Positions 24,041-64,000 of a stretch of DNA of 64,000 nucleotides are shown in pieces. The DNA comes from a bacterium (GTDB lineage Bacteria; SAR324; NAC60-12). A program made the position numbers and the translations under genes. The notes below the pieces were generated by a model. The model worked only from the letters and a program-made list of their open reading frames with translations, did not search any database and was not told the DNA's origin. Numbering within the stretch: position 1 is the first letter of the stretch; each line of letters begins with the position of its first letter. The DNA lies in assembly GCA_965209155.1 (NCBI GenBank), contig OZ242383.1, positions 3,010,051 through 3,074,050 on the forward strand, read 5' to 3'.

Positions 24041-24997
24041 CTAAGCGAAGGGGTTGATCAGTCTGGAGAGGAATCCTCGTTTGCGTTTCCCTGCGGCGCC
24101 GTAACTGCCTTGGCCGCCCCTGAGCCTCGGGTCGAGCAGGTCTCGCACCGCGTCGCCGAACATGTTGAGGGAGTAGACTACAATCGTCAGGGCAAGCCCC
24201 GGCCAGAGCGCCAGCCATGGGGCAATTTCCATGAACTGACGTCCTTCCCGGCTGAGCAGACCACCCCAGCTAGGAATCTGGGCTGGCAGCCCGAACCCCA
24301 GGAAGCTCAGAGAAGCCTCAGACATAATCACCCCCCCGATGTTGATGCTAAATATGATGATGACGACAGCCGCAATATTGGGCAAGACATGTCGGATAAG
24401 TGTTCTCCATTTTGAGGAGCCAATCGCCTCTGCCGCCTCAAAATACACATTCTCTTTTACGCCAATAACGGCGCCTCTGACGACTCTTGAGCCGCTGATG
24501 CCTCCTGCTATACCCAGGACCACTATTATCTGTGGGATACCCCGCCCCACTATGGACATTATGGTTAACAATATAAGCAGTGCCGGGAAAGCCATCCAGG
24601 CATCGACAAAGCGCTGCACCACCAGGTCCACTTTCCCCCCAAGGAATCCAGACGTGCCGCCGACCAGGAGCGCGACGAGCACATTGAGCGTGGTTGCGGC
24701 CAGACCCACCACTAAGGAAATGCGAGCCCCGACGATCAGGCGGCTCAGGAGGTCTCGCCCAAACTGGTCGGTCCCCAGGAGATGCCGGGCGGATGAGCCC
24801 TGTAGCCGGTCTACCAAGTTTGGTTTATCATAGGGATAAGGGGTCAACACATCGGCAAAGATGGCCACCACAATCAAGATCAAGATGATGAGCCCGCCGA
24901 AGGTCCCCAGGGGCTTCTCCTTGACCAGCCGGATGAAGAAATCCACAAACCGGCTCCGTCGCTTGGGCCCACGGATGGGGGAGGGTCTCTCATTCAT
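24041..24997 (-). CDS. ABC transporter permease (DppC-like), cassette 2
   Basis: 318 aa; about 80% identical to 31738..32694. Confidence 0.85.
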   Translation of the reverse strand: MNERPSPIRGPKRRSRFVDFFIRLVKEKPLGTFGGLIILILIVVAIFADVLTPYPYDKPNLVDRLQGSSARHLLGTDQFGRDLLSRLIVGARISLVVGLAATTLNVLVALLVGGTSGFLGGKVDLVVQRFVDAWMAFPALLILLTIMSIVGRGIPQIIVVLGIAGGISGSRVVRGAVIGVKENVYFEAAEAIGSSKWRTLIRHVLPNIAAVVIIIFSINIGGVIMSEASLSFLGFGLPAQIPSWGGLLSREGRQFMEIAPWLALWPGLALTIVVYSLNMFGDAVRDLLDPRLRGGQGSYGAAGKRKRGFLSRLINPFA

Positions 24998-47059: not shown

Positions 47060-47113
47060 GCGATTCCCTCTTGCCCAGTATCGTTGCAAAAACATGCGTT
47101 ATCCGGAGTTGAC

Positions 47114-50100
47114 ATGCCCCTGAACCTGGATTTTTCTGCAGATGCGAACGTCGTTTCCACTATCGCCGAAGCGCATCGCCTGGCTTTCGGCCATCTCTTC
47201 AATCCCACCTACGCTACTGAAACCTCCCGGATCGATCCCCTTCCCCATCAACGGATTGCCGTCTACGAACACATGTTGCCACAGTCCCCGCTTCGTTTTC
47301 TGTTAGCAGACGACGCGGGAGCCGGTAAGACGATCATGACGGGGCTGTACGTGCGCGAAATGCTGTCGCGGCAACTCATTCATCGCGTACTCATCGTGCC
47401 ACCTGCCGGCCTGGTGGGCAACTGGGAACGTGAATTGTGGAACCTGTTTCACTTGCAATTCAATATCATCAGTGGCGCTGACGCGCGATCCGGTAATCCC
47501 TTTCTTGGTCCGGAAAGTGACCTGGTTATCGTCAGCATCGACACCCTGGCCGGTGAACGCCTATTCAGTCAACTCGAAGACCCAACGACCATAGCCTATG
47601 ATCTCGTAGTTTTCGACGAGGCTCACAAGCTCTCCGCGAATCGTCTGCCGGATATGCGGGTTCGCAAAACAGACCGCTACAAACTGGCGGAAGCCATCGC
47701 GGGAGCCGGGAGCGGCAGTGAACCATGGACCCTGCGCTGGTCCGCTCAAAACCTGCTGCTCTTGACGGCAACGCCTCACATGGGAAAGGACGAGCCCTAT
47801 TATTACCTGTGGCGTTTGTTGTTGCCAGACGAGCTCTCGACATACGATGCATTCGCCAGGATCTCCAAGGAGCACCAAAGGAAGCATTACATTCGCCGTA
47901 CCAAGGAGGAGATGGTCCACTTTGATGGCTCCCCGCTCTATCCCCGGAGATCCTGCAACACGATAAGCTACGAACTGACTCGAGGAGTGGGAAGCGAACA
48001 GGAACTATACGACGAAACGACGGACTACATCCGCAGTTACTACAACCGGGCCCGCTTCCTGAATCGATCCGCCGCCCGCCTGGCAATGAGCGTTTTCCAG
48101 CGCCGGCTTGCCAGCTCCACTTATGCCCTGGTGCGTTCTTTCGAGCGTCGCGAGGAAAAACTCAGGGGTTGGATCAACGACATTCGGAATGGTCGGCTCA
48201 GTGAGGAACGACTCGCGCAACAACAACGAATCCTTGATCAGCTTGATGATCCTTTTGCAACGAGTACCGCTGATGAGGACAGCATAACTGGAGACGCCGG
48301 TGAACGACTCGAGGACTTCGAAGGCGGTCTCCTGGCCGGCACCGTCGCGGTCAGTCTCAGCGAACTCGAGACGGAACTTTCCCGGGTCGCGGAGTTGCTC
48401 GACCAGGCAAAGAAACTGGACAACGCCGGGGAAGAATCCAAGTTCGAGAAGCTCCGGGAAGTCCTCCAGGATCCCGAATATGCCGACCAGAAATTCATTA
48501 TCTTCACTGAACATCGTGATACGGCGCATTTCCTGGTACGCCGGCTCGAAAGCCTTGGTTTCACCGGTCTGGTCTCCCTGATCCACGGTGGCTTACCATA
48601 CCAGGAACGCGAGCGGCAAGTGGAGTTTTTCCGCAAACCCGTGGACGAGGGGGGAGCCAATTACCTGGTGGCCACCGACGCTGCCGGAGAGGGAATCAAT
48701 CTCCAGTTTTGCTGGTTGATGGTGAATTACGACATCCCCTGGAATCCGGCGCGGCTCGAGCAGCGGATGGGAAGAATTCATCGCTATGGCCAGGAGCATG
48801 ACCCGGTGATCATCATCAACCTGGTGGCGGGAAGCACTCGTGAAGGACGAGTTCTGAGGACCTTGCTCGACAAGCTCGAATCGATCCGCCAACAACTCCA
48901 GTCCGACAAGGTTTTCGACGTCATCGGCCGCCTCTTCCAGGACCTGTCTATCAGCGATTACCTCGAACAGGCGCTCACGGAAGAAGACCCTGCGGCAGCG
49001 GCCGCACGATTGCAAGGCGACTTCACGCAGGAGCAGGTGAGCGCTCTTGAAGAAAAGGAACGCGCTCTGTTTGGAGAGGGAGGCGAAGTCCGTCGCAAAC
49101 TGGCAAGTCTCAACGATCAGGCGGAGCAGGAAAGTTACCGGCGTCTTCTCCCCGGCTACGTACGACGATTCGTGGAGAAAGCGGCGCCTTTGCTCAATCT
49201 GCGGATCGAAGGAAACCTGGAGACAACCTTCACCCTGCTCCCGCAACGACCCTGTGCGCTCGATCCGTTGTTACGGGCGTTTGAAATGTATCCCGAATCC
49301 GCCCGCGGTCACCTGACAGTGTCCAAGCCTCGAAACGACGAAGAGGCGATCTGGATGCACCCCGGCGAACCACTCTTTGATCGAATCTCCTCCTTGATTT
49401 TAAGCCGCTTCGCAGACGAAGGACTGAAAGGCGCCGTGTTCATCGACCCTCACGCAGCCGAACCGTACCTGTTCCATATTGCCTTGGTTTCCGTTGAACG
49501 TTCTCACGGCCAGGACAACGCGGAGTCGATCGACCTGTTGAACAATGCGGGCGACGATGAAACAGGTGCCCGGGTTCCCAACCATTCGACCGAAATGGAC
49601 CGTGGGATGCGAGTTGATTCCAGGTTGGTCGGTCTGCGTCAAAGGGAGGACGGTACCTTTGAGGATTCTCCGGTTGAGCATTTGCTTCTGCTGCGGGGAA
49701 CCCGGAATTTTGCGCCGGGCCGGGTGCCGCTTGCACGCCGAGCACGAAGTTTGGTATCCGCTGCGTATGATTTTGCTCGGGATGAAGTGGTGGAACGTAT
49801 GGTAGAGTTCAACCAACAGCGAATTCTCGATGAATTACCGGCTCGTATGGAGCAGGTCCGTCGGGGCTTTGACCACCAGGCCGCGGAACTCGCGCAGGTC
49901 CGGAGCCGCATTAGCGAAAAAGCCCGCACTGGTGATCGAAAAGCGGCGGAAGAACTCTCCCGGATCAAGGAACGGCAGCGGAGTTTGAAGGCAGCCAAAA
50001 CCCGTCGACTCGACGAACTGGCATCCGAACCGCATCTTATTCAGCCTGGTGCAGTCGAATTCCTTGCGCATGCCCTCGTGGTACCCGTCCAGAATCAAGA

Positions 50101-50602
50101 GGAAATCGAGCGTTACGATGCGGACGTTGAAGCGATCGCCATCAAATTTGCGGTTACATACGAGAAAAGCTTTGGCGCCGAGGTGAAGGACGTTTCACGT
50201 CCCGAACTCGCGCACCGTGCGGGGCTGACCGCCTGGCCCGGCTTCGATCTCCTGTCCCGCCGTCCTGCGAGCTCTCATGATCCTGTGGAAGGTTCCCGCA
50301 CGATCGATCAAAAGATATCATGGACGCATTCCCGCCCGGTCGAGCCAAATGTACGCTACGAGGAGCGAGCCATCGAAGTCAAGGGCCGTACCGGCACGGG
50401 TATCATCGAGATGAGCGATAATGAATGGACCAGGGCCTGCAATCTCCGTGACCGGTACTGGCTTTACGTCGTTTTTGACTGCGCCACCCCACGCCCGCGT
50501 TTGCTGCGGGTGTGCAACCCCTTCGCCAGGCTGTTCACCCGAAGCCGTGAATCTCAGGCCTTCACTTTCACCGCCAACTCGCTCTTGGAGATCGCCGAAT
50601 AA
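47114..50602 (+). CDS. SNF2/DEAD-like helicase with C-terminal DUF3883-like domain
   Basis: Helicase motifs I LLADDAGAGKT, II VVFDEAHKL, III LLLTATP and VI QRMGRIHRYGQ. C-terminal ...EVKGRTGTGIIEMSDNEWTRACNLRDRYWLYVVFDCATP. ATG at 47114 preceded by GGAG; the track's TTG start is at 47084. Confidence 0.8.
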   Translation: MPLNLDFSADANVVSTIAEAHRLAFGHLFNPTYATETSRIDPLPHQRIAVYEHMLPQSPLRFLLADDAGAGKTIMTGLYVREMLSRQLIHRVLIVPPAGLVGNWERELWNLFHLQFNIISGADARSGNPFLGPESDLVIVSIDTLAGERLFSQLEDPTTIAYDLVVFDEAHKLSANRLPDMRVRKTDRYKLAEAIAGAGSGSEPWTLRWSAQNLLLLTATPHMGKDEPYYYLWRLLLPDELSTYDAFARISKEHQRKHYIRRTKEEMVHFDGSPLYPRRSCNTISYELTRGVGSEQELYDETTDYIRSYYNRARFLNRSAARLAMSVFQRRLASSTYALVRSFERREEKLRGWINDIRNGRLSEERLAQQQRILDQLDDPFATSTADEDSITGDAGERLEDFEGGLLAGTVAVSLSELETELSRVAELLDQAKKLDNAGEESKFEKLREVLQDPEYADQKFIIFTEHRDTAHFLVRRLESLGFTGLVSLIHGGLPYQERERQVEFFRKPVDEGGANYLVATDAAGEGINLQFCWLMVNYDIPWNPARLEQRMGRIHRYGQEHDPVIIINLVAGSTREGRVLRTLLDKLESIRQQLQSDKVFDVIGRLFQDLSISDYLEQALTEEDPAAAAARLQGDFTQEQVSALEEKERALFGEGGEVRRKLASLNDQAEQESYRRLLPGYVRRFVEKAAPLLNLRIEGNLETTFTLLPQRPCALDPLLRAFEMYPESARGHLTVSKPRNDEEAIWMHPGEPLFDRISSLILSRFADEGLKGAVFIDPHAAEPYLFHIALVSVERSHGQDNAESIDLLNNAGDDETGARVPNHSTEMDRGMRVDSRLVGLRQREDGTFEDSPVEHLLLLRGTRNFAPGRVPLARRARSLVSAAYDFARDEVVERMVEFNQQRILDELPARMEQVRRGFDHQAAELAQVRSRISEKARTGDRKAAEELSRIKERQRSLKAAKTRRLDELASEPHLIQPGAVEFLAHALVVPVQNQEEIERYDADVEAIAIKFAVTYEKSFGAEVKDVSRPELAHRAGLTAWPGFDLLSRRPASSHDPVEGSRTIDQKISWTHSRPVEPNVRYEERAIEVKGRTGTGIIEMSDNEWTRACNLRDRYWLYVVFDCATPRPRLLRVCNPFARLFTRSRESQAFTFTANSLLEIAE

Positions 50603-50943
50603 AACCGAATGGCAAAGTGAAATGAAAGGAACGCGCGTGATACCGTTTTTATTGCAGTCGTATCCCGAATTCAATGGACAAGTTTGACGATCACTCGTAT
50701 GTTATATGTATATCAATACTGGAAACAGTGAGGTTCGAATTCGAAGGTTCTGCATACCATTATTCTTGCTGGCATGAACGCCGCCGTGTTTCCCGACGAG
50801 ATCCTCAGTTTTCTCGCGAATTACCTGGTGGAGAAGTTGCGCCACGGAGTGCCTCACATGAATGCGGTTCGGCATTGAAAAATCTACGGTTTGTCAAATA
50901 GTTTGAAGAAATACCTGAGTATACCGAAGGAAAGGTTAATAAA

Positions 50944-51333
50944 ATGGGAGCAACGCACGTCACCGTTACCATTCGGAATCCGGCTGAACCGGACAGAAGT
51001 TGGGAAGAGCTGTTCCTGGTCGATACGGGAGCGACCGATTCGCTCGTGCCCAGAGCACACCTGGAAGCCATCGGTCTCAAGCCCAAAGGCCAGCGGGTAT
51101 ATGAACTGGCCGATGGTCGTCAGATCAAAATGGATATTACGACCGCGGACATTGAATTCATGGGCGAAATCGTCGGTGGAACGATTTTATTCGGCGAGGC
51201 GAATGCCGAGCCGCTGTTGGGTGTCACCGCCTTGGAATCAGTGGGTATCGAAGTCGACCCGAGCAACCAACGTTTGAAAAGACGGTCCGCCGTGCGGCTC
51301 AAGAGTCTCGAACAAAAAATTAAGAATATTTGA
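50944..51333 (+). CDS. retropepsin-like (clan AA) aspartic protease, standalone
   Basis: 129 aa; LVDTGATDS active-site motif; GGTILFGE flap-like region. Confidence 0.65.
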   Translation: MGATHVTVTIRNPAEPDRSWEELFLVDTGATDSLVPRAHLEAIGLKPKGQRVYELADGRQIKMDITTADIEFMGEIVGGTILFGEANAEPLLGVTALESVGIEVDPSNQRLKRRSAVRLKSLEQKIKNI

Positions 51334-51430
51334 TTCATGAAAAGCGAGATATAGGTAAGATAGAAGTCACAAACAGGTCGAATGCCTCATTCAAAAAAGT
51401 ACACACTTCTCCGCAACAGATAGGTTTGAG

Positions 51431-52642
51431 ATGACTGACGAACTCCTCTCCAACTCTCAGAGACTGACTACCGACAAAGATCACATATTGGAACAATCAA
51501 AACAGGATCAAGTCCCAATAACGCAGTCTAAATACGATATCGAATCCGATCCGGACAGTGGCCTCGAGACCGAAAAAGACGATTTGGAAATAAAAATCGA
51601 ACGTCCTTTTGATCCCGAAAAAATTAAAGTACGGACAACCAATATCGTCGTGGAATTGCTGGTTTCGAGACTCTCATATAAAGAGATCGATCTGGAGCCC
51701 GACTTTCAGCGTTTGTCTGTATGGAATGAACGGCAGAGATGCCAGTTGATAGAATCCCTTCTCTTGCGCATTCCCATCCCTGTTTTCTATGTGGCTGCGG
51801 ATGAGCAAGAAAATTGGGCCGTCGTCGACGGAGTTCAGCGCATGTCGACCATTTATGATTACGTGAAAGATGAATTTCCCCTTAAACAACTCGAGTATCT
51901 CTCTCAATTCGAAGTACGGAAATACAGCGAACTTCCGCGACCGATGCAACGGCGGATTGTGGAGACTCAACTGGTCGTGAATATCATAGATCCGAGCACG
52001 CCAGAAGACGTAATGTTCAACATTTTCCGGCGCATCAACACGGGTGGTGTGAAATTGAACGGGCAGGAAATTCGTAACGCTCTGTATCGCGGTCCCATCC
52101 GGCAATATCTGAAAGAACTCGCAGAAAGCGAGGAATTCCTCTTGGCCACAGATCGTTCGATCAAAAAAAACAGAATGGCCGATCGCGAATGCGTTTTGCG
52201 CTTCCTTGCCTTTTACATAGGCCGCTGGGAAGACTATGACGCCAGTAAACTGGATAATATTCTAAACCGGACCATGACGAAGATCAATGAAATGACTCCA
52301 GAACAACGGGACGCCATCTCCGAGGATTTCAAAAAAGCGATGTCGGTCGCTCGCATCATTTTTGGTAAGAATGCGTTTCGTAGGCGTTACAAGCGGGATG
52401 ATTTCCGTCGTCCTCCGGTCAGCAAGGCATTGTTCGAAGCCTGGAGCGTTCAATTGGCGCGCTGCTCACCCGAACAGATCAAATCGCTTCGCAAAAAACG
52501 GGAGGAGGTTAATGATCGGTTCATCACGCTAATGAATGAAGACAATGAGTTCGATAACGCGATCTCATATTCTACCGGATTACCCGAGCGCGTTAAAAAA
52601 CGCTTCAGCACGATCGAAAAGTTGGTTGGGGAGATGGTATAA
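51431..52642 (+). CDS. DUF262-family (ParB/Srx-like NTPase fold) protein
   Basis: 403 aa; DGQQR-type motif VVDGVQRMSTI; no DUF1524/HNH tail. Confidence 0.7.
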   Translation: MTDELLSNSQRLTTDKDHILEQSKQDQVPITQSKYDIESDPDSGLETEKDDLEIKIERPFDPEKIKVRTTNIVVELLVSRLSYKEIDLEPDFQRLSVWNERQRCQLIESLLLRIPIPVFYVAADEQENWAVVDGVQRMSTIYDYVKDEFPLKQLEYLSQFEVRKYSELPRPMQRRIVETQLVVNIIDPSTPEDVMFNIFRRINTGGVKLNGQEIRNALYRGPIRQYLKELAESEEFLLATDRSIKKNRMADRECVLRFLAFYIGRWEDYDASKLDNILNRTMTKINEMTPEQRDAISEDFKKAMSVARIIFGKNAFRRRYKRDDFRRPPVSKALFEAWSVQLARCSPEQIKSLRKKREEVNDRFITLMNEDNEFDNAISYSTGLPERVKKRFSTIEKLVGEMV

Positions 52643-53766
52643 TGCTCAGCATGATCAAACTGTTGAATTTCAAGTGCTTCCAAAGTCTGGAGTTGAGTTG
52701 CGCACCGCTTACGCTCTTGTGTGGCTTGAATGGTATGGGAAAAAGTAGCGTGATTCAGGCGTTACTTATCCTGCGACAATCGTTTTTTTCGGGAGACCTG
52801 ACTGACGGTAAGTTAGTCTTGGGTGGAGAACTCGTGGACCTCGGGACCGGCGTGGACGTGCTTTTTGAAGGCGCGGATAGTGATAGCGTCGGATTTGAGC
52901 TCCATAGTGACAAAATTTCGACCCCATGGTCACTCGCATTCGATTATTCGAAAGCTACCGATCAATTATCTGTCGTGTCCAGTGATCCGAATCGGACAAC
53001 TCCTTTGATGCCGGAATTATGGCGTGAAGTCCCGCCTTTCGTGAGCTTGGTCTATATTGATGCGGAACGGATCGGCCCTCGAAAAATCTATCCACTTTCG
53101 GAAACCCAGGGTCGCCGAAGCGACTTTGGAGTGGGTAATGAATACGCGTTGAACTACTTGAACCTGCATCAGGACGAGCGATTGCCGGATGAAGACCCAC
53201 GTTTCCCCGGCGCTCGCAGTAGCCGTTTGATCAGGGTCGTCAATCGGTGGTTACAGGAAGTAACTCCGGGCGTCGAACTGCAGCTTGAAACCGTTTCCGC
53301 TGCTGATGCCCTGATCGCTGGTTTTTCATTCGATCGACCGGGAGATGTTGCAACGCGGCGTTATCGCACGACAAACGTGGGATTCGGTCTATCATATACA
53401 TTGCCGGTGTTGCTCGCTCTACTAGCGCCTGCGGGTACGTTATGCTTGATAGAGAATCCCGAGGCGCACCTGCACCCACGTGGGCAGACCAAACTGGCGG
53501 AGCTTGCGGTACGCGCTTCCCTGGCAGGCGTTCAGGTAATCGTCGAAACCCACAGCGACCACTTCATGGACGGAGTTCGTATTTCTGTCAGAGAGGGACT
53601 GATCCCTCCGCAAGGAGTTGCATTCCACTACTTTGAGCGCAAGGGTGGCATGACCGTCGTTTCCTCACCGCAAGTCGATACGGATGGGCGTTTGTCGTCA
53701 TGGCCTTCCGGTTTCTTTGACCAGCACGAAGAAAATCTGGCGAAACTCCTTGCCCCGAGGTCCTGA
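52642..53766 (+). CDS. AAA_21-type ABC ATPase with DUF3696-like C-terminus
   Basis: Walker A GLNGMGKSS; IENPEAHLHP...VETHSDH; C-terminal ...SWPSGFFDQ. Start overlaps the upstream stop (TAATG). Confidence 0.7.
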   Translation: MLSMIKLLNFKCFQSLELSCAPLTLLCGLNGMGKSSVIQALLILRQSFFSGDLTDGKLVLGGELVDLGTGVDVLFEGADSDSVGFELHSDKISTPWSLAFDYSKATDQLSVVSSDPNRTTPLMPELWREVPPFVSLVYIDAERIGPRKIYPLSETQGRRSDFGVGNEYALNYLNLHQDERLPDEDPRFPGARSSRLIRVVNRWLQEVTPGVELQLETVSAADALIAGFSFDRPGDVATRRYRTTNVGFGLSYTLPVLLALLAPAGTLCLIENPEAHLHPRGQTKLAELAVRASLAGVQVIVETHSDHFMDGVRISVREGLIPPQGVAFHYFERKGGMTVVSSPQVDTDGRLSSWPSGFFDQHEENLAKLLAPRS

Positions 53767-53767
53767 C

Positions 53768-54691
53768 ATGCGCGAGATGGTTCTTAATCATGCGAGCATT
53801 GTGTCACCCGATGTGAGCACGGCCGTTGACTGGTTGAAAGACGTAGGTAGCGGTATGGCTCAACTCACTACCAAAAGGGTAGTAGCATCAAGTCTGAGGA
53901 TGTGCCGTCTCCCATCCGAGATCAACTGTGTACCCGGTTATTCATTATGGGATGTTTACCAGGAGTTACGAAAAAACGGGGATCGGGACACTTACGGATT
54001 CCTCATGCGTCTGAGTACAAAAATTCCGTTGCTGAGCGACTTCGAACTGGATTTCAAGGATCGGTTTCTTGCTTGTGAGGCAACAGATTTGTCAGCGGAA
54101 GATGGAGAACCGTTGGTCCTGTGTGCCATCACCGACTGGATCGCCGTCGGGTTTCCATCGGCTCCGGGTTGGGACCACGACTGCCTCGAAATTAGCTTCA
54201 ACGAGTTACTACCCGACGACAGCATTGAGGAATCCTCTGAAACAATAGACAATCTCACTCGATCCGTTCATGCTCTGTCGATTTGCGAGCAACGCCAGGC
54301 AATCCTTCTGCGATGTCAGAGTCCCTCGTCATTGTGGGAGCGCAGGGAAGAGGCGTTTCCGAATCTTGTTTTTGGTCCGGATGTAAAAATAGAACGGAAG
54401 TTTTTTGGGTCTACTGTCAAAAAGTTAATTGCTCTGGACGAATCGGCCGCCGAATGGCGCAAAGTGGGAGGGAGCGTGCCTCCATGGACTTGTACGGTAA
54501 CACCCGAAACCGTCAACTTGATGAATAATCCTAAACTCCGTGAGACGCGTCGATTCAAATCACAGGGTGGTACGCGAGAATTATTCGAATGGCACGCCAA
54601 ATTCAGCAATGGCCGACGCATTCACCTTCGTTTCAACGCGGACTCACGAAAAATCGAAATTGGGTACATAGGTCCCCATCTGCCAATCTGA
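53768..54691 (+). CDS. hypothetical protein, third gene of the coupled DUF262-ATPase operon
   Basis: 307 aa from the ATG one nt after the upstream TGA; no recognised family. Confidence 0.5.
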   Translation: MREMVLNHASIVSPDVSTAVDWLKDVGSGMAQLTTKRVVASSLRMCRLPSEINCVPGYSLWDVYQELRKNGDRDTYGFLMRLSTKIPLLSDFELDFKDRFLACEATDLSAEDGEPLVLCAITDWIAVGFPSAPGWDHDCLEISFNELLPDDSIEESSETIDNLTRSVHALSICEQRQAILLRCQSPSSLWERREEAFPNLVFGPDVKIERKFFGSTVKKLIALDESAAEWRKVGGSVPPWTCTVTPETVNLMNNPKLRETRRFKSQGGTRELFEWHAKFSNGRRIHLRFNADSRKIEIGYIGPHLPI

Positions 54692-54978
54692 GGTATCAGA
54701 TTCCACCACCAATTCAGTTCGGAACAACAAGAATATAGGCCTGTGATTGATAACATACGTCTCTTCGAAACTGCCCTCACGAATAGGAGAACAACAGATC
54801 AAGGATGGATGAAACTTCAGAGTTATAACAATTGCAGGCATTCAATCGAGTCTGACGCTGAGCTTTCCGCGATCCTATTTGAAAGTTGAAGTAACCCTCG
54901 GAGTTTGTAAGGAAATGGGATTGGATGGAGAGTCGGCTTCATGACAACATAACTTTAACAAATCATACGGAGGCCCAA

Positions 54979-55737
54979 ATGCCGACATGTTTTGTAATTC
55001 AACCGTTCGACTTTGACAAGTACGACAAGAGATTCGAAGACATCTTCAAACCGGCCTTAGAGCAAGCAGGTTTCGAAGCATATCGTGTTGATCAAGATCC
55101 TTCTGTTGAGGTACCAATCAATTCCATCGAAGATCGCATTCGTGACGCAACTATTTGCCTGGCGGATATAACCACAAATAACCCAAATGTATGGTATGAA
55201 CTGGGGTTTGCATTTGCTTCGGGTCGTTCCGTAATCATGGTTTGCTCGGACGAGCGGCCAGAAGGTGGATTTCCATTCGACATTCAACACCGTACCGTAA
55301 TCAAATACAGCGCTGATTCGCCGAGCGATTTCGAAAAGCTTAAGAATGACATCACGGAACGAGCAAAGGCCCTGGTCCAGAAAGGTGAAACTATAAAATT
55401 TATCGAATCTGAAAAACTGACACCACGAGAAGGACTAAGTCAGATTGAAATGCAAGTCCTTGCCATCGCTGCCGCAAACAATTCTATTCCAGGAGACACG
55501 ACGTACGTTCATTCTCTGAAGAGAGACTTGGAAAGTTCGGGATTGACAGATGTCGGTTTTGGAGTGGGGATTCGGAGACTTGAGAAAAAGGGGCTTATCG
55601 AATTAGAGTGGTATGAAGACTATCGTGGAAACTCCTTTCAAACAGTGGCTCTCAGCGAGAAAGGTTGGGATTGGATCAGCAGTAACGACTCGCTGTTCGA
55701 TTTGATCAAGAGAGAGCAATCCAGAAAATTTCGATGA
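54979..55737 (+). CDS. nucleoside 2-deoxyribosyltransferase-like (TIR/SLOG-related Rossmann) domain protein with C-terminal winged-helix region
   Basis: CFVIQPF...ICLADITTNNPNVWYELGFAFASGRSVIMV resembles the NDT-like fold. GGAGG RBS before ATG 54979; the track starts at 54925. Confidence 0.45.
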   Translation: MPTCFVIQPFDFDKYDKRFEDIFKPALEQAGFEAYRVDQDPSVEVPINSIEDRIRDATICLADITTNNPNVWYELGFAFASGRSVIMVCSDERPEGGFPFDIQHRTVIKYSADSPSDFEKLKNDITERAKALVQKGETIKFIESEKLTPREGLSQIEMQVLAIAAANNSIPGDTTYVHSLKRDLESSGLTDVGFGVGIRRLEKKGLIELEWYEDYRGNSFQTVALSEKGWDWISSNDSLFDLIKREQSRKFR

Positions 55738-55921
55738 TGAACTTCCTTTCTAATAGAATTCGGAGATAAGAGTTTACCAACAAACGTCTTATAGAAGTGG
55801 CATTTCAACCCAAGTGATTTTCAGGACTTGGCGCCCGCAAAGAAAAGGTGACATGCGCACGTTTTGACATTTTGAACGTTTAAACAAAGAAGCATCAGAA
55901 ATTTAATTGAAGTATTCAGCA

Positions 55922-57685
55922 ATGGACAATAAAACACACAAGGGTGATGTTCCACAAATCGAGGCATCGGACTTGGATAAATATCCTTCATTCACGTTTG
56001 CGAGTATCACCTTTTCGGATGGAACTAAATTCGAACTTGAACCCACTGACATAGTTGTCTTAGTAGGACCCAACAACTCGGGTAAGAGCGTTTCACTTCG
56101 AGAACTTGAGGGACACATTGCTGAAACCTCTGAGGCAATCGTCATCAAGTCGGTTGAACCACTTAAAGTCGGTACACAAGAAGAATTCGGCAAATTAATA
56201 GACAAACATACCCAAGTTAGGATAGATGGAATTAATAGGACCTATTCTATACCTGGCTTTTCATGGTCGTCGCGCAACCATCCAAAATGCAACTGGCCAA
56301 ACAATTTAAAACCATTTCGTTCATTGTTTTGTATGCGAATACCAACCGAAAGCCGCATAAATGCCAGTAATCCGGCAGGGTCAATAAATTTTCTGGAGGA
56401 TCCGATCTCGCACCCGATCCAGATGCTGTATGAGGACGACCAACTTGAAAAGAAGATCAGCAAGTATTTTCGGTCAGCTTTTGGTGAGGACCTTATTCTC
56501 TTTCGTTCAGGTGGGAGTATAATTCCTCTGTTTGTCGGCGATAAACCGCCTCTGCATTCGGGAGAAGACCGTATATCCAATACTTACTTGAAACGAGTGC
56601 GCAAATCAACAAAACCTCTGAATCAACAAGGCGATGGAATGCGCAGTTTTGCAAGTGTGATCTTGCACACGTTTGCCTCAACTACCCCTACGGTCCTCCT
56701 GCTCGACGAACCGGAAGCCTTTCTTCATCCACCCCAAGCCCGGCTGCTTGGGGAAATCATTGCCAAAGAAAAATCATCTCGCGCTCAACTCTTTGTGGCA
56801 ACCCATAGTCCTGATGTCCTTCAAGGGTTGGTCAATGTTGCTCCCGAACATCTTCGTGTGTTGAGGATACAGCGCAACGGCGATGTCAATCGGGTCAAAG
56901 AACTGGACAAAGAACTCGTTAAACAAATCAGCGTCGATCCGTTAATGAAGTATTCCTCGGTATTGTCTGGCGTGTTCCACGAAAGAGTGATCATCTGTGA
57001 ATCGGATGCCGATTGTATGTTCTATTCCTCGATTCTCGACATGCCAATGGTTCACGGAAGGCGTCAACCCGATGTTCTCTTTGTTCATGCTGGTGGCAAG
57101 CACCGTATGGCGACTATGGCCAAGACATTGGTTGATTTGGATGTGCCAGTCGATGTCATCGCAGATATCGATATCCTGAGAGAAGACGATGTCTTCAAAC
57201 GGATCATTGTTGCATTAAACGGAGATTGGTACAGTATTCAACCGATTGCAAATCAAGTAAAAAAAGCAATTGAACAGCACAAACCACGGTTAACCGTCGA
57301 CGAAATTAAAAAAAGAATCAACACGTTACTAGAAAATCTACTGCCAGAAGACGAGCTAACAAGAAAGAATCGTTCAGAGATCGAAATAATCTTCCGTAAA
57401 GATACCTCGTGGGATAACATCAAGCATGCTGGTGAACCCGCCATTCCGGCAGGCCAGGCAACGCAAAAATTTCAGGAACTTCAAAGGCTCTGTAGGCAGA
57501 TGGGCCTATGGATCGTACCCGTTGGTGAGTTGGAGGGTTTCTGTAAGGCCATTGGTGGTCACGGTCCGGCTTGGGTACAGCAAGTTATTGAACAGCGAGA
57601 TCTCGCAAAGGATCCTGATCTTGAACAAGCCCGCAAGTTTGTACGCGAGATTTGGATCGCGAATGATCCAGGAAATACACCATGA
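55922..57685 (+). CDS. OLD-family-like ABC ATPase with C-terminal TOPRIM-like region
   Basis: Walker A GPNNSGKS; LLLDEPEAFLHP; ATHSPD; C-terminal VIICESDADC...DVIADIDIL acidic motifs. The stop overlaps the downstream ATG (ATGA). Confidence 0.6.
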   Translation: MDNKTHKGDVPQIEASDLDKYPSFTFASITFSDGTKFELEPTDIVVLVGPNNSGKSVSLRELEGHIAETSEAIVIKSVEPLKVGTQEEFGKLIDKHTQVRIDGINRTYSIPGFSWSSRNHPKCNWPNNLKPFRSLFCMRIPTESRINASNPAGSINFLEDPISHPIQMLYEDDQLEKKISKYFRSAFGEDLILFRSGGSIIPLFVGDKPPLHSGEDRISNTYLKRVRKSTKPLNQQGDGMRSFASVILHTFASTTPTVLLLDEPEAFLHPPQARLLGEIIAKEKSSRAQLFVATHSPDVLQGLVNVAPEHLRVLRIQRNGDVNRVKELDKELVKQISVDPLMKYSSVLSGVFHERVIICESDADCMFYSSILDMPMVHGRRQPDVLFVHAGGKHRMATMAKTLVDLDVPVDVIADIDILREDDVFKRIIVALNGDWYSIQPIANQVKKAIEQHKPRLTVDEIKKRINTLLENLLPEDELTRKNRSEIEIIFRKDTSWDNIKHAGEPAIPAGQATQKFQELQRLCRQMGLWIVPVGELEGFCKAIGGHGPAWVQQVIEQRDLAKDPDLEQARKFVREIWIANDPGNTP

Positions 57686-60600
57686 CAACCAATGACAAAC
57701 GACTTATTGAGGTGGCTTTTCCGTTGAAGCAGGTTTCGATGGATTCGGTGCATGAGAAGAACGTGCGGCATGGGCACATTTCCACGTTGCATATCTGGCC
57801 GGCGCGACGGCCGTTGGCGGCGTGCCGGGCGGCCCTGATTGCCACGCTGCTTCCCGATCCTGGCGACTCCGTGCAACGAAAAGCCATCCTGGAGCGGATG
57901 GCTGGCCGGGTGGTCGAGAAGATCGAACGCAAGCGCGTGAACGGGCGTGTGGTCGAGAAGAAGAAGGAGGAAACGGTTGGCGGTATCCTCCACTGGGGTC
58001 GTGAACAGGGTCCAGATCTCGAGTGGTTTCGTAAGGAAATTCGTAAAGCCTATGGCGGTCGCGCCCCTAAGGTACTGGACCCCTTCGCAGGGGGTGGTGC
58101 CATTCCCTTGGAAGCGATGCGTCTTGGATGCGAAGTGACTGCCATGGACATCAACCCGGTTGCCTGGTTCATTCTCAAATGCACCCTGGAATATCCCCAG
58201 AAACTTGCAGGTCAAAGCCTCCCGTTGCCCGGGTTCGCGCTCAAGGATCGCCCATTCATGGAGGCGTTCCTGAAGGAAAAGCAATTCCAGGGAGAAGGTT
58301 TGCGTACCTTGATGAAGCAATTCGGACATGGTGACAACAGCTCGATTCAGGTTGATGCGCTTCCCCAGGACGACTCGATCAGCCACGCGGATCTCGCCTG
58401 GCAGGTTCGTGCCTGGGGTCGTTGGGTGTTAGCCAGGGCACGTAAAAAATTGGCTAAATACTATCCCACCTATGCTTCGTTCGAGCCGTTGATGCCGGGT
58501 ACCGATTTCGAACCACGCCCCCTACGTCTTTTGGAGATCGACGAGGAAGGCGATCCTCAGACCGAATCACTCAACGACGAGTTCGACAAGGGTTATCTCT
58601 CGAATACACAAAATCCGCGTTGGATCGCCAAACCGACGGTGGCCTACCTCTGGGCGCGTACTGTGACCTGCAAACAGTGCCGGGGTACGCTGCCCCTGCT
58701 CAAAACGCGCTGGTTGTGCAAGAAGGAACGCAAGCGCGTGCTGCTGACTATGGAACCGGATGCTGAACAGAGCGGGGTGATCTTTGGCGTAGAGAGCGAC
58801 GTGCCTCAAAACGGTGGCAACGCGGCGCAACGAAGGGAGCACGACAAACGTATCGGAGCCGGAACCATGACGCGCACCGGGGCTACCTGCCCTTGCTGCG
58901 GCATGATCATGACCATGGAAGACATTCGATTGGAGGGTCGAGCCGGCCGGTTGGCTTCAATGATGACCGCAGTGGTGGTAGATGGAGCGAAAGGTAAGGA
59001 ATACCGTCTCCCTACGGATCATGAACGGATGGTGGCGGAAGTGACTGAGGAGCAACTTCATTTACTGTATACGAACATTCCTTTTGGGTTGCCAGAAGAG
59101 AAGACGCCAACACAGAGCCAGTTTTCTGGTGTATATAACTATGGTTTAAACACATGGCAGAAGTTGTTTACAAAACGGCAGTTATTGGCGATTGGGGAGT
59201 TCGTTTTAGCACTGCGCACAATATCAAAGCAAATGACGGATTACCCTGTAGAATGGAAAGAAGCTCTGGTTGGAATGTGTTTGCCCATCATTAGCCGTAT
59301 GGCTGACCGAGGAAGCACGTTAGCAACATGGACTAATAACCCAGAAAAAATTAGGAGTACTTTTGCACGATTTGCGTTACCAATCACATGGGATTTTTCT
59401 GAGTTCGCGCCACTTTCAGACACTACGGGAGGTTTTGTACAATCTGTCGATTGGATATTCCGGGTCTGCGAACATCTAATTAAAAGTGCAGTTTCAGTCC
59501 GAGGTGGAGAGTGTATTTGTGCTTCAGCAATTACTTGTCCAACTGATAATGTTGACCTGATATTAACTGATCCTCCCTATTATGATGCGATTCCGTATTC
59601 TGATCTGATGGATTTCTTCTTTGTCTGGCTAAGGCGTTCGATTCCGGGATTGTCCGCCGAGATAGATTCGATCTTCTCCAATGCCCTCGGTCCTAAATGG
59701 AATCATGAAGTAATGGATGGTGAACTCATAGACGATGCCAGTCGATTTGATGGTAATAGAAAGCGGTCCAAACAAAACTATGAAGATGGCATGGTCCGCT
59801 CGTTTAGATCTTGTCATGCTGCATTGCGGTCGGACGGGCGGTTAGTCGTCGTTTTCGCAAACAAAAGTCCGGCTGCTTGGGAGACATTGGCCGCTGCGCT
59901 AATTCGTGCCGGCTTCGTAGTTGATGGCTCCTGGCCTATTCAAACTGAGATGGGTACCAGAATTCGTGCGATGAGTTCCGCCGCCTTGTCATCATCCGTC
60001 TGGATCGTGTGTAAAAAGCGATCCGTTTCTCGTCCGGGTTGGGACCACACCGTCCTCGAGGATATGCGGGAGAAGATCAGCCAACAACTGCGTGATTTCT
60101 GGGACGCGGGGATTCGCGGACCGGATTTCGTGTGGGCCGCGACCGGTCCGGCGTTGGAAGCCTTCAGCAAGTACCCCATCGTCAAAAAGGCGAACGACCC
60201 GGATCATTTAATGAACGTCTCGGAGTTCCTGCGCGAAGTGCGTCGCCTGGTGGTCGATTTCGTCGTGGGACGAGTGCTGAGTCACGATGGCGGGCAAGAA
60301 ACCGCAAGCGGGCTCGACGACGTGACCACCTACTACCTGCTGCATCGCCACGACTTTGGTATGGATGAAGCGCCCGTTGGGGGTTGCATCCTCTACGCGC
60401 TGTCTTGCAATCTCTCCGACTCGGCCCTGGTGGGTCAGTATGACCTGATGGCCCGAGCGGGTAAGGGAAACTCCGGCAACGAATTGGAAGAGGGTCTGTC
60501 TGCCGGTAGCACGGACGATGAGGTGGAAGAAACGAGTAGCGGAAGCGGCGCCAAGGTGAAACTGAAACCCTGGCAGCGGCGGCAGGGTCGTAACCTCGGT

Positions 60601-60876
60601 CTGCCAGCATCCGGTGGGGGGCTCGTACCACTGATCGACCAGGTACACAAACTGATGCACCTCTGGCGCGAAGGGGAGCAAGTGAAAGTTGACGATTACA
60701 TCGACACGCGGGGTCTACAACGTAACGCATTGTTCCATCAACTCCTGCAGGCGCTCATCGAACTGGCATCCGTCGATTCCGAAGAACGCTCCATCCTGGA
60801 AGCCTTGAGTAACCATGCCATGGCCCGTGGGGACGTCAAGGCGCCGCGCCAGACTCGATTTCAACTGGGAGCATGA
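57682..60876 (+). CDS. DUF1156-family N6-adenine (DPPY) DNA methyltransferase
   Basis: 1064 aa; N-terminal EVAFPLKQVS...HGHISTLHIWPARRP (DUF1156); motif IV LTDPPYYDA; Zn-ribbon-like CPCC. Confidence 0.8.
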   Translation: MTTNDKRLIEVAFPLKQVSMDSVHEKNVRHGHISTLHIWPARRPLAACRAALIATLLPDPGDSVQRKAILERMAGRVVEKIERKRVNGRVVEKKKEETVGGILHWGREQGPDLEWFRKEIRKAYGGRAPKVLDPFAGGGAIPLEAMRLGCEVTAMDINPVAWFILKCTLEYPQKLAGQSLPLPGFALKDRPFMEAFLKEKQFQGEGLRTLMKQFGHGDNSSIQVDALPQDDSISHADLAWQVRAWGRWVLARARKKLAKYYPTYASFEPLMPGTDFEPRPLRLLEIDEEGDPQTESLNDEFDKGYLSNTQNPRWIAKPTVAYLWARTVTCKQCRGTLPLLKTRWLCKKERKRVLLTMEPDAEQSGVIFGVESDVPQNGGNAAQRREHDKRIGAGTMTRTGATCPCCGMIMTMEDIRLEGRAGRLASMMTAVVVDGAKGKEYRLPTDHERMVAEVTEEQLHLLYTNIPFGLPEEKTPTQSQFSGVYNYGLNTWQKLFTKRQLLAIGEFVLALRTISKQMTDYPVEWKEALVGMCLPIISRMADRGSTLATWTNNPEKIRSTFARFALPITWDFSEFAPLSDTTGGFVQSVDWIFRVCEHLIKSAVSVRGGECICASAITCPTDNVDLILTDPPYYDAIPYSDLMDFFFVWLRRSIPGLSAEIDSIFSNALGPKWNHEVMDGELIDDASRFDGNRKRSKQNYEDGMVRSFRSCHAALRSDGRLVVVFANKSPAAWETLAAALIRAGFVVDGSWPIQTEMGTRIRAMSSAALSSSVWIVCKKRSVSRPGWDHTVLEDMREKISQQLRDFWDAGIRGPDFVWAATGPALEAFSKYPIVKKANDPDHLMNVSEFLREVRRLVVDFVVGRVLSHDGGQETASGLDDVTTYYLLHRHDFGMDEAPVGGCILYALSCNLSDSALVGQYDLMARAGKGNSGNELEEGLSAGSTDDEVEETSSGSGAKVKLKPWQRRQGRNLGLPASGGGLVPLIDQVHKLMHLWREGEQVKVDDYIDTRGLQRNALFHQLLQALIELASVDSEERSILEALSNHAMARGDVKAPRQTRFQLGA

Positions 60877-62120
60877 GCATGATCACGTCACTGAGACTCG
60901 TCAATTTCAAGAACTTCGCCGACGAGACGTTGCGCGTCGGACCCTTCACCGTGATCGTCGGCGCCAACGCCAGTGGCAAAAGTAACATTCGCGATGCCTT
61001 CCGCTTCCTGCACGGCATCGGTTGTGGTGATACCTTAGCCAGTATTTTCGGCGGGAAATTTGGTGGTCCCAGAATTCCAGAATGGGAACCGATTCGCGGG
61101 GCTCCAAATGAAATCGTTCGTTTTGGGTCAGCGCCCTCCAATTTCTCCCTTGATGTCGAATTGAAATCGTCAGGGATAAATACATACTACTCAATCACGG
61201 TCAATTACGAACCGGACAACCCTGCTGGATTCTGCGTATTGCAAGAAGAGTTGAGAATTGGGTCAAGGCATGTTTACACAGCGAAGAAAGATCAAGACAC
61301 CCTCTCGCTGGTTGCAGGGGAGGTAACGAAACAGGAGAAAACTCCCCCCTATAGCCCCTATAAACCGGCCCTGTCGGATTTTTATCAGAGATACAAGTTC
61401 AAGTATTTTTCCGAATCTGAAGCGAGTTTTCACGATGTGTTAGATCGTATGAGTTTTATAGAGTTGGTTCCCGAGCGGATGCGGGAACCATCTTTCCCTG
61501 GCGCGACTGAATTGGGAGATACAGGCGAGAACTTACCAACATCGCTCGAGGCAATCTGTGTTGACCCTAAACGAAAGAAGATTCTAGCCGATTGGTTGCA
61601 GGAACTGACTCCCATGGATGTGAGTGGTTTCGAATTCCCGCGTGATCCCACTGGTCGGGTCCACCTCCAAATCGTGGAGGGGAACGGGAGAAAGGTTTCG
61701 GCCTACAGCGCCTCAGATGGTACGTTGCGTTTTCTCGCCATGCTGGCCATACTGCTCGGCCCCCACTCGGGAGGCCTGTATTTCTTCGAAGAAATCGACA
61801 CGGGCATTCACCCGGCACGGCAATCGCTTTTACTGGAACTGATCGAAAATCAGACTGCTAAAGGCACAATTCAGGTCGTCACCACCACGCATGCACCCGA
61901 CCTGTTGAACCTGGTCAATGACCGGACATTCGAGAATACCTCCGTCGTCTACCGTGACGAGGACTCGGAGGACGGCATAATTCGGCCACTGGCGGAAATT
62001 CCCAATGCCAGGGAATTACGAAAGACCCAGGGGTTGGGTCGGCTTCTAAGCGGAGGTTGGATGGAGACCGCGCTTGCGTTCACCGAGGGAAACGACGATG
62101 AGGAGGAGAATGAAGAATGA
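60873..62120 (+). CDS. AAA_21/AAA_15-type ABC ATPase
   Basis: Walker A GANASGKSN; FEEIDTGIHP; TTTHAPD; 4-nt overlaps on both sides. Confidence 0.7.
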   Translation: MSMITSLRLVNFKNFADETLRVGPFTVIVGANASGKSNIRDAFRFLHGIGCGDTLASIFGGKFGGPRIPEWEPIRGAPNEIVRFGSAPSNFSLDVELKSSGINTYYSITVNYEPDNPAGFCVLQEELRIGSRHVYTAKKDQDTLSLVAGEVTKQEKTPPYSPYKPALSDFYQRYKFKYFSESEASFHDVLDRMSFIELVPERMREPSFPGATELGDTGENLPTSLEAICVDPKRKKILADWLQELTPMDVSGFEFPRDPTGRVHLQIVEGNGRKVSAYSASDGTLRFLAMLAILLGPHSGGLYFFEEIDTGIHPARQSLLLELIENQTAKGTIQVVTTTHAPDLLNLVNDRTFENTSVVYRDEDSEDGIIRPLAEIPNARELRKTQGLGRLLSGGWMETALAFTEGNDDEEENEE

Positions 62121-62680
62121 AAGTTCTCATCATTCCGGAAGATTTCCGCAACGATCAATACATTCTGAAGCCATTATTCTTACGACTCTTTCATGCCATC
62201 GGCAAACCACGTACGAAAGTCGAGGTTTGTCGCGATCCATTGCTTGGCGGCGTCGATGAAGCAATGAAAATTCAGCGCATTGAAGAGATTCTGATGCAAC
62301 ATGGTGGGATGACTGATATTTTTATTCTGTGCATCGACCGGGACGGTGATAAAAACCGGCGTCAGAAACTTGATCGACTCGAATCGAAATTAGGCAACTC
62401 CCATTCATTCCTTGCCGAGAATGCCTGGGAAGAATTGGAGACCTGGGTTCTGGCGGGTCTGGATTTGCCAAACGAATGGCGGTGGTCCGACGTTCGTAAG
62501 GAAGTCCAGGTCAAGGAAGTGTACTTCGAGCGACTAGTCATCAAACGAGGTTTGTCGGACGAACCTGGCGGTGGTCGAAAAGTACTGGGAGAAGAGGCAT
62601 CGCGCCGGATTGGCGCGATCCGGCAGAAGTGTCCCGAGGATTTCGACGCCCTTGCCCGGCGTCTCGAATCCGCTATCTAA
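62117..62680 (+). CDS. DUF4276-family (TOPRIM-like) protein
   Basis: 187 aa; MKVLIIPED...; CIDRDGD acidic motif; overlaps the ATPase stop. Confidence 0.55.
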   Translation: MKVLIIPEDFRNDQYILKPLFLRLFHAIGKPRTKVEVCRDPLLGGVDEAMKIQRIEEILMQHGGMTDIFILCIDRDGDKNRRQKLDRLESKLGNSHSFLAENAWEELETWVLAGLDLPNEWRWSDVRKEVQVKEVYFERLVIKRGLSDEPGGGRKVLGEEASRRIGAIRQKCPEDFDALARRLESAI

Positions 62681-62700
62681 ACTCACTGAACGAGGACAAC

Positions 62701-63990
62701 ATGACAATGAAAGCTTCCTGGAAACCCTGGCACGAGGTCGTGCAACTGCGTGATGACCTGAAGACCGGTGAACTGGCGTTGGCCGTCTTTGCCGCAGACC
62801 TCTACGACGTGGTGATGCAAAAGGGTCAACGGCCGGTCTACGAGCGGCCCGCCGAGTTCTTTGCCCTGACCTACGCCACATTCAACCTGCGCGAACTGGT
62901 CAGGGAGGTCGTTCTGCGCCTGGCCGGCCGGAGTGACAAGGCTTATCGTAAACTCTCCGTCAATTATGGCGGTGGCAAAACCCACACGCTCATCGCGCTC
63001 AGGCATCTCGTAAACGACCCGGACACTTTGCCCGACTTGCCAGCCGTCAAAGAATTCGAATCACACGCCGGGTTCAAAATTCCCAAGGCACGTGTCTCGG
63101 CACTGTGCTTCGACAAGATCGACCTGGAAAAGGGAGTCGAGACGCCAGGTCCCGGTGGAAGGGCGCGGATGCTCCGGCACCCGTGGAGCGTGCTCGCCTT
63201 TCAATTGGCGGGGGCGGAGGGTCTCGCCCTCATCCATGGAGAGGGGAAGGAGGAGCGTGATACGCCACCGGCGGAACCCCTCCTGGTGGACCTGCTGTCC
63301 AAACCCCAGCAAGAGGGTCTGGCGACGCTGGTACTTCTCGACGAGGTGTTGATGTACATCCGCACCCGCGTGGAAAGCGACCCGAGTTGGCGTGGACGCA
63401 TGATGAGCTTTTTCCAGTACCTCACGCAAGCCGTGGTCAAGGTGGACCGCTGCGCCATGGTGGCCTCCCTGCTTGCCTCCGATCCCGGGAAGCACGATGA
63501 TTTCGGAAAGGAACTCCTGCGAGACCTGTCCGAGGTCTTCGGCAGGCAGATGGAAGAAGACGCGAGTCCCGTGAGCAAGGAGGACGTGGCGGAAGTGCTC
63601 CGCCGTCGCTTCTTCAAACCCGAATCGATTCGCGATTCCAACGAGTTCCGTCCACATGTGAATTCGGTGGTGAGCCATATCGCCATGCTCGACGAAGGGA
63701 CCAAAAAAGAGCGCAAGATTGCGGAAATACGATATTTGAACAGCTATCCCTTTCACCCCGATCTCAGTGAGATCTTCTACACGCGCTGGACTCAACTCGA
63801 GGGATTCCAGCGGACGCGGGGTATCCTGCGAACCTTTGCCATTGCTTTGCGTGATGCGGAAAAATGGGACACGAGTCCACTGGTCGGGGCCAACGTGCTG
63901 TTGAACGAAGCGGGACGGAACGACCTGGCGGAAGCCGCACGAGAACTGGCCGTCTCTGCCAGCGTAGACGGTGCCGATGGCCGGCACCAT
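62701..63990 (+). CDS. DUF499-family ATPase (BrxC/PglY-like), 5'-partial in window
   Basis: Not in the ORF track because it has no stop before the window end. My translation from ATG 62701 gives MTMKASWKPWHEVVQLRDDLKTGELALAVFAADLYDV...KLSVNYGGGKTHTLIALRHL... with no stop through 63990. Confidence 0.65.
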
Positions 63991-64000
63991 GAATGGGCCC

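Follow-up and report, generated by a model that had tools for sequence, protein, structure and literature searches.

The 3' end of a 64,000-nucleotide stretch of genomic DNA from a SAR324 bacterium (NAC60-12; assembly GCA_965209155.1, contig OZ242383.1, positions 3,010,051 to 3,074,050 of the forward strand; hereafter the window) carries a run of five overlapping genes, and raises the question of whether these genes constitute a new defence system or belong to systems that already have a name. An initial reading, made from the sequence alone, had described them as an OLD-like ATPase, a DUF1156 methyltransferase, an AAA ATPase/DUF4276 pair and a DUF499 ATPase, and had proposed a composite or hybrid system, possibly of the methylation-associated defence (MADS) type. 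In our analysis, the region represents with good confidence a single Hma (helicase-methylase-ATPase) system, also called BREX-related Type 1, of which it covers the 3' two-thirds and both slots of which have been colonised by independent anti-phage modules. The arrangement of embedded modules is already published, ABC-ATPase/TOPRIM pairs inside Hma included, which removes the novelty claimed for a composite system; the locus is a well-populated but ordinary example. Its value is that an apparent new hybrid system, 17 kb in extent, resolves into the named Hma system and four known or candidate modules. The analysis addresses gene identities, layout, integrity of motifs, and the recurrence and autonomy of one embedded gene pair; the biochemical steps given below are, without exception, ones that we infer.

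The Hma core genes and the organization of the locus

The Hma locus comprises 11 genes on 17 kb, all co-directional on the + strand from 47114 to 64000, with hmaA as the first gene. The three core genes are found in canonical Hma order and orientation, and seven embedded genes in four modules sit between them: five genes in the hmaA-hmaB slot, i.e. a Menshen system (NsnABC), a TIR-like gene and an Old-like gene, and an ABC-ATPase/TOPRIM pair in the hmaB-hmaC slot. The five genes initially treated as one unit are a part of this larger locus, which also includes Menshen and the TIR-like gene, neither of them recognized in the initial reading. Their overlapping arrangement is nevertheless real, as judged from the open reading frames (ORFs) and the junction sequences: the ORFs are located, all on the + strand, at 55907/55922..57685, 57682..60876, 60873..62120 and 62117..62680, and a fifth frame that begins at 62701 is still open where the window ends; 4-nt ATGA start/stop overlaps are present at 57682, 60873 and 62117, and a 20-nt spacer precedes the ATG of hmaC at 62701. 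This geometry bears out the initial description of the junctions as those of translationally coupled genes. No terminator-like sites were found on the + strand between the genes of the locus (47114-64000). The GC content of the hma core genes is 0.54-0.60 versus 0.45-0.53 for the embedded genes, which fits separate origins.

The window was also searched for traces of a recent insertion, for which the sequence-only reading had suggested att-like repeats as a sign. No direct or inverted repeats bracket either slot, and no tRNA gene is predicted anywhere within the 64-kb window; a recent site-specific insertion is rejected on these grounds.

The hmaA gene (47114..50602, +; ORF opening with TTG at 47084, ATG at 47114) encodes a SNF2-type helicase with a C-terminal NOV_C/DUF3883 PD-(D/E)xK nuclease domain (PADLOC HmaA, 6.3e-164; Pfam SNF2-rel_dom, Helicase_C, and NOV_C at 5e-11), NOV_C being the domain that is annotated as DUF3883 in the Halomonas HmaA record. 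The DUF3883 helicase that had been noted upstream of the five genes is hereby linked to them as HmaA; its DExx motif is LVVFDE, and it is the predicted restriction effector of the Hma core. The hmaB gene (57682..60876, +) encodes a DUF1156 DNA methyltransferase of the N6-adenine type (PADLOC HmaB, 3e-116; Pfam DUF1156, 4e-19) in which both catalytic motifs are intact, DPFAGGG as motif I and DPPY (residue 630) as motif IV, as expected from its description as a DPPY methyltransferase. The hmaC gene (62701..64000, +) encodes a DUF499 ATPase of the ORC/Cdc6-type AAA+ class (PADLOC HmaC, 2.6e-61; Pfam DUF499, 3e-19). It is cut by the window end after its first 433 codons, whereas homologues comprise about 1100-1115 amino acids (full-length in the genome loci L001 and L054, see below); the N-terminal 433 amino acids carry the Walker A and B motifs (GGGKT, LVLLDE). 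The scores against the NCBIfam models DUF499_antiphage and DUF1156_antiphage are far below their cutoffs.

The locus shares with Hma (Payne et al. 2021; DUF499-centred, BREX-related Type 1) the same three core genes, their order and orientation, and cargo in both slots, as in most Hma loci; its load of cargo, seven genes that form four modules, is above the usual. Embedded genes have been reported for 931 of 1,485 Hma systems (62.7%), with ABC ATPases plus TOPRIM (HEC-01), NERD or PIN partners as the commonest family and with 96.7% of the embedded genes co-oriented with their host system; HEC-01 gave no protection when assayed (Payne et al., bioRxiv 10.1101/2024.01.29.577857). In another survey, insertions were found in 66.5% of hma loci, and all Halomonas hma loci contained an AAA_21 gene and an unannotated gene between hmaB and hmaC (PMC11232893), so the gene pair in this slot, which had been thought to be new, has a reported precedent. 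The PADLOC survey allowed a maximum of three embedded genes per slot (bioRxiv 10.1101/2024.01.29.577857). The five genes in the hmaA-hmaB slot exceed this number, and automated calls may therefore miss the locus; other Hma loci with more than three embedded genes per slot may be systematically missed under the published rule.

For the function of the core, the genome sequence allows a proposal by homology: HmaB would methylate host DNA and so mark it as self, HmaC, as an ORC/Cdc6-type AAA+ ATPase, would load or regulate HmaB, and HmaA would translocate on unmodified invading DNA and nick or cleave it. Halomonas HmaA alone defends against T4 via its nickase domain (PMC11232893). Hma has been reclassified as BREX-related (BR) Type 1 in a study that also records OLD-ABC/TOPRIM 'backup effectors' for the BREX and BR loci of 1,242 or more taxa (Rakesh & Krishnan 2026, PMC12839542). 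The sister system of Hma, MANTIS/Gao_RL (BR Type 2), likewise comprises a DUF499 AAA+ ATPase, a methyltransferase and a helicase-nuclease. MANTIS provides the only biochemical model of a DUF499 ATPase that loads a methyltransferase and couples methylation to restriction, the latter being performed by the helicase-nuclease (Shaw et al. 2026, preprint). The two systems differ in that MANTIS has an HKD/PLD nuclease and a small co-regulator, MtsB, whereas Hma lacks MtsB and its nuclease is of the PD-(D/E)xK (NOV_C) type.

In the closest relative, L001, the 1,234-amino-acid gene that ends 4 nt before hmaB (L001:1815-5519, +) gave no PADLOC match at 1e-5, nor a match of at least 30% coverage to HmaA of the window. 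At this locus, another protein may have taken the place of the helicase-nuclease.

The ABC ATPase and its small partner between hmaB and hmaC

The pair's first gene (60873..62120, +) encodes an ABC ATPase of the OLD/AAA_21 type (PADLOC PDC-M07A, 1.3e-62; Pfam AAA_21, 2.5e-32) with a Walker A motif, GANASGKS, and with weaker PADLOC matches to HEC-01A (1.8e-40) and mad3 (2.7e-22), and also to AriA and AbiLi. Together with the OLD-like ATPase/TOPRIM, DUF1156 and DUF499 assignments, this AAA_21 assignment had been made from the sequence alone, and Pfam confirms all four.

The second gene (62117..62680, +) encodes a small protein of 187 amino acids, for which there is no Pfam match even at E<=10 and no NCBIfam match, and only HEC-01B at E=0.035 in PADLOC. 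The DUF4276 label given to it earlier therefore does not hold as a direct match; it holds at the level of the superfamily. When 46 divergent relatives were scanned singly, 22 matched Pfam DUF4276 (best, 2e-07), seven matched RloB, one matched Toprim_4, and at least 10 matched PADLOC HEC-01B, with one match each for mad4 and AbiLii. As nearly half of these relatives match DUF4276, the 187-amino-acid protein is assigned as a putative divergent TOPRIM of the DUF4276/RloB/HEC-01B type, with predicted homology at superfamily level only. Both DUF4276 and RloB have been assigned to the Toprim superfamily, and DUF4276 is also the family of Mad4 from MADS (PMC12065111).

The family of the small protein is large and carries no Pfam annotation; it comprises 2,463 clusters at 90% identity, of which the top 120 are all at least 66% identical, and 640 clusters at 50% identity were obtained in a profile search. 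Close members have invariant residues E8/D9, D74-R-D76-G, E105 and E108; the 46 divergent members retain E8, D13 and E108 without exception, and D74/D76 almost without exception. A TOPRIM would be expected to have a conserved Glu after beta1 and a DxD motif after beta3. The AlphaFold2 model has a four-stranded alpha/beta core at a predicted local distance difference test score (pLDDT) of only 66; in this low-confidence model, the predicted strands E2-7 and E68-72 have E8 and D74/D76 at their ends, and fold searches with it gave generic Rossmann-like matches rather than TOPRIM. The small protein is better conserved than its ATPase (mean 67-70% versus 55-58%), and is the predicted nuclease effector of the pair.

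The interpretation of the two genes as a split OLD-like module is upheld. HEC-01 (Hma-embedded candidate 01; Payne et al. 2024, preprint) and the PADLOC candidate PDC-M07 likewise combine an ABC ATPase of the OLD/AAA_21 type with a small TOPRIM-like protein encoded 3' of it, and are embedded in Hma. However, the small protein of the window fits no PADLOC B-component model beyond the marginal match to HEC-01B, which places it in a strongly conserved branch that lacks a model of its own; the window member goes undetected by the models of Pfam, NCBIfam and PADLOC, and a model added for this family would improve automated calls. PARIS shows the same split into an ABC ATPase (AriA) and a TOPRIM protein (AriB), although AriB is of the DUF4435 type and the window protein is DUF4276/RloB-like. 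In MADS, the MAD3/MAD4 pair (Maestri et al. 2024) is likewise an ABC ATPase and a DUF4276 TOPRIM inside a methylation-based defence operon. By analogy with PARIS, Septu and Gabija, the ABC ATPase of the pair would act as sensor or regulator and probably restrain the small TOPRIM nuclease as long as no phage cue has been sensed.

Recurrence of the pair and its relation to Hma

In a scan of one genome per species, 415 loci were found to encode the small protein, and the best 80 of these (L001-L080) underlie the counts for the pair given here. All 80 are in metagenome-assembled genomes (MAGs), at 64-82% identity to the small protein, and represent Latescibacterota, Dehalococcoidia, Binatia, Nitrospira, Alpha- and Gammaproteobacteria, Gemmatimonadota, Vicinamibacteria and others. 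The high identity across distant phyla, all in MAGs, suggests an intense recent horizontal spread of the small protein within one type of community; several isolate names among the 80 MAGs look like those of host-associated bins, possibly from sponges.

The ATPase gene is located directly 5' of the small gene in 80 of the 80 loci. The pair recurs between hmaB and hmaC homologues on the same strand, and often with the same tight spacing, in 25 of them, so that the recurrence inside DUF1156-DUF499 loci that the sequence-only reading had proposed as a check is observed. In 53 loci, no Hma gene is found within 10 kb of the pair. The neighbours of these stand-alone copies are mostly housekeeping genes (vitamin transporters, acetyl-CoA carboxylase, P-type ATPases, tRNA synthetases), with defence genes being sporadic, and neither clustering of the neighbours nor hidden Markov model scans of the nearest neighbours revealed a recurrent partner. 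As the pair stands alone in 53 of the 80 genomes, it is autonomous cargo.

A neighbour-joining tree built from the ATPase and the small protein is star-like, with embedded copies intermingled with stand-alone ones. A single capture of the pair by Hma is unsupported, with 17 Fitch changes for 27 embedded tips compared to a mean of 22.4 and a minimum of 17 after shuffling, a weak result on a tree of this shape. Among the embedded loci, the pair and HmaC diverge in parallel (rho 0.71-0.74), and this correlation is as strong as that between HmaB and HmaC; the cassette, once embedded, tends to travel as a unit.

The slot was further explored in an HmaB-anchored metagenome sample, in which 61 loci contain both hmaB and hmaC. 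Of these, 36 have an empty slot, with fewer than 300 nt separating the two genes, and 25 have an occupied one, but the occupant is the pair in only one of the 61; in a second metagenome locus, the pair follows hmaB and the locus ends short of hmaC. In the closest HmaB relatives of this sample (72-73% identity), the slot is empty or holds other cargo. Among the genome loci, the slots of L001 and L011 contain the pair followed by tandem HEC-01 ATPase/TOPRIM pairs. L011 also contains, in the same slot and after a mad3/HEC-01A-like ATPase, a gene for a 210-amino-acid protein (L011:13855-14487, +) with no PADLOC match at 1e-5, which is another unmodelled partner of an embedded ABC ATPase.

These data bear on whether the pair, and perhaps the Old-like gene as well, specifically serves this Hma lineage as its guard or backup effector, a functional integration that we consider unlikely. 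In a PARIS-like version, the pair would sense phage anti-restriction proteins that inhibit HmaB/HmaC and would release its TOPRIM nuclease; in a MAD3/MAD4-like version, it would contribute directly to restriction. Integration would be consistent with the ATGA overlaps that link hmaB, the ATPase gene and the small gene, with the 20 nt to hmaC and the recurrence of a small-gene-to-hmaC spacing of 23-30 nt in many embedded relatives, with the co-divergence of the pair and HmaC, and with the occurrence of the pair in the same slot in 25 genomes of several phyla. Furthermore, deletion of mad3 and mad4 in MADS leads to a loss of defence, and OLD-ABC modules have been proposed as a backup layer against anti-restriction (PMC12839542). 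However, the 53 stand-alone copies are accompanied by housekeeping genes rather than a methyltransferase, 60 of the 61 related Hma loci lack the pair, close HmaB relatives included, embedded and stand-alone copies are interleaved on the tree, and the slot also takes other, unrelated cargo. From these sequence comparisons, a functional wiring of the pair to Hma appears unlikely. A narrower and still less probable proposal is that of a guard wired to the Hma methylation machinery, which would monitor the integrity of HmaB/HmaC or phage anti-restriction proteins and would fire its nuclease when the primary system is blocked; if true, the recurrent hmaB-hmaC slot and the analogy to MAD3/MAD4 would represent a general design of a methylation system plus an OLD-type guard. 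If wired to Hma, the pair would offer an accessible case for the study of layered defence; the comparisons made here point the other way.

It is highly improbable that the five genes form one new, obligate hybrid system of OLD, DUF1156, AAA/TOPRIM and DUF499 components. The genes are co-directional and overlapping, and the same order, Old-HmaB-ATPase-small-HmaC, is found in one other genome, L054 (Dehalococcoidia), with an Old homologue of 64% identity at the same position 5' of hmaB. However, L054 is the only one of the 25 embedded relatives with Old at this position, the pair is optional, the core genes strongly match the named Hma models and have their helicase outside of the five-gene unit, and each component belongs to a module that is found independently elsewhere.

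The proposal that the triad of DUF1156, DUF499 and DUF3883 genes is a MADS locus is hardly tenable and is rejected, for the mandatory components MAD6, MAD7 and MAD8 were not detected among the families listed for the 10 proteins scanned (47-64 kb, to the window end), nor are the specificity subunit and the kinase of MADS present, and far better scores are obtained with the Hma models for the methylase (HmaB), the helicase (HmaA) and the ATPase (HmaC). In favour of MADS, there are weak matches to mad2 (4.5e-8) and mad3, the latter with 73.5 bits for NCBIfam antiphage_MADS3 and hence far below the family cutoff of 420, and the DUF4276 nature of Mad4, with relatives of the small protein matching DUF4276 and, once, mad4.

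For the Hma system with independent cargo, which we favour, Menshen, the TIR-like gene, the Old-like gene and the split pair would be independent second-line modules expressed from the same operon. The cargo is most likely co-transcribed and translationally coupled with the hma operon and not mechanistically dependent on it; the modules most likely act alone as second-line defences, probably of the abortive-infection type.

Embedded modules between hmaA and hmaB, and neighbouring genes

The first module of the hmaA-hmaB slot is a complete Menshen system, with NsnA, NsnB and NsnC encoded consecutively by abutting or overlapping genes. The nsnA gene (51431..52642, +) encodes a ParB-like DUF262/GmrSD_N protein (PADLOC NsnA, 2.4e-142; Pfam GmrSD_N, 2e-23), nsnB (52642..53766, +) encodes an ABC ATPase with a C-terminal DUF3696 domain (PADLOC NsnB, 7.8e-105; Pfam AAA_15, AAA_21 and DUF3696), and nsnC (53684..54691, +) encodes the effector (PADLOC NsnC, 2.1e-56, residues 29-335). 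The nsnC ORF as predicted overlaps nsnB by 83 nt; as the match to the NsnC model begins at residue 29, the real start of nsnC is probably the ATG at 53768, directly 3' of the nsnB stop. In another genome, a stand-alone copy of the ATPase/small-protein pair (L024:6357-8263) is located directly downstream of NsnA/NsnC-like fragments, which have 60-67% identity to the Menshen proteins of the window, are split over several high-scoring segment pairs and are apparently degraded; the same cargo modules thus co-occur outside Hma, too.

The 828-nt gap between hmaA and nsnA (50603-51430) contains two overlapping ORFs of 128-129 amino acids on the + strand (50891-51277 and 50944-51333), and a 16-nt inverted repeat (94%; 50592-50607 and 51182-51197) is found in this region. 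The gap may serve the embedded block as a promoter or regulatory region, or may contain a small gene that has escaped annotation.

The second module is a single gene (54925..55737, +) for a TIR-like or nucleoside 2-deoxyribosyltransferase-like protein of 270 amino acids, with weak support from PADLOC 'Effector TIR' (3.3e-10) and a Pfam match to Nuc_deoxyrib_tr (7e-5) that is below cutoff; no relative was found in the PDB. It may represent a single-gene defence of the TIR/NADase type, or an accessory of Menshen or Old.

The third module is the Old-like gene (55922..57685, +), which encodes an ABC ATPase together with a TOPRIM nuclease in a single polypeptide (PADLOC Old, 5.6e-24; Pfam AAA_21 and OLD-like_TOPRIM, both above cutoff, the latter with 25.5 bits at a cutoff of 23.2) and whose stop overlaps the hmaB start by 4 nt. 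The Walker A and B motifs are GPNNSGKS and VLLLDE, respectively. Class 1 OLD and Gabija GajA have the same fusion of an N-terminal ABC ATPase with a C-terminal TOPRIM domain, and the closest solved structures are those of Ts OLD (6p74) and GajA; we take the single-chain protein to be a class 1-like OLD. Both the Old-like ATPase and that of the pair match the AriA and GajA models. The Old-like gene is flanked by the TIR-like gene and by hmaB, and no UvrD-type helicase adjoins it; in contrast to Gabija, it is without a GajB-type helicase partner.

The chromosomal genes 5' of hmaA look ordinary, and comprise genes for a thiamine pyrophosphate enzyme, an AlgH-like protein, a methyltransferase, five SBP_bac_5 ABC-transporter clusters, and a sulfite/nitrite reductase. 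The five paralogous solute-binding genes (SBP_bac_5; peptide/oligopeptide type) are located on the minus strand at 9893, 18335, 26112, 34094 and 40054 (window positions 9893-41937), each apparently followed by ORFs of its own, of which 24041-24997 is a confirmed permease; these tandem ABC-transporter clusters are set apart by spacers of low GC content (0.40-0.46).

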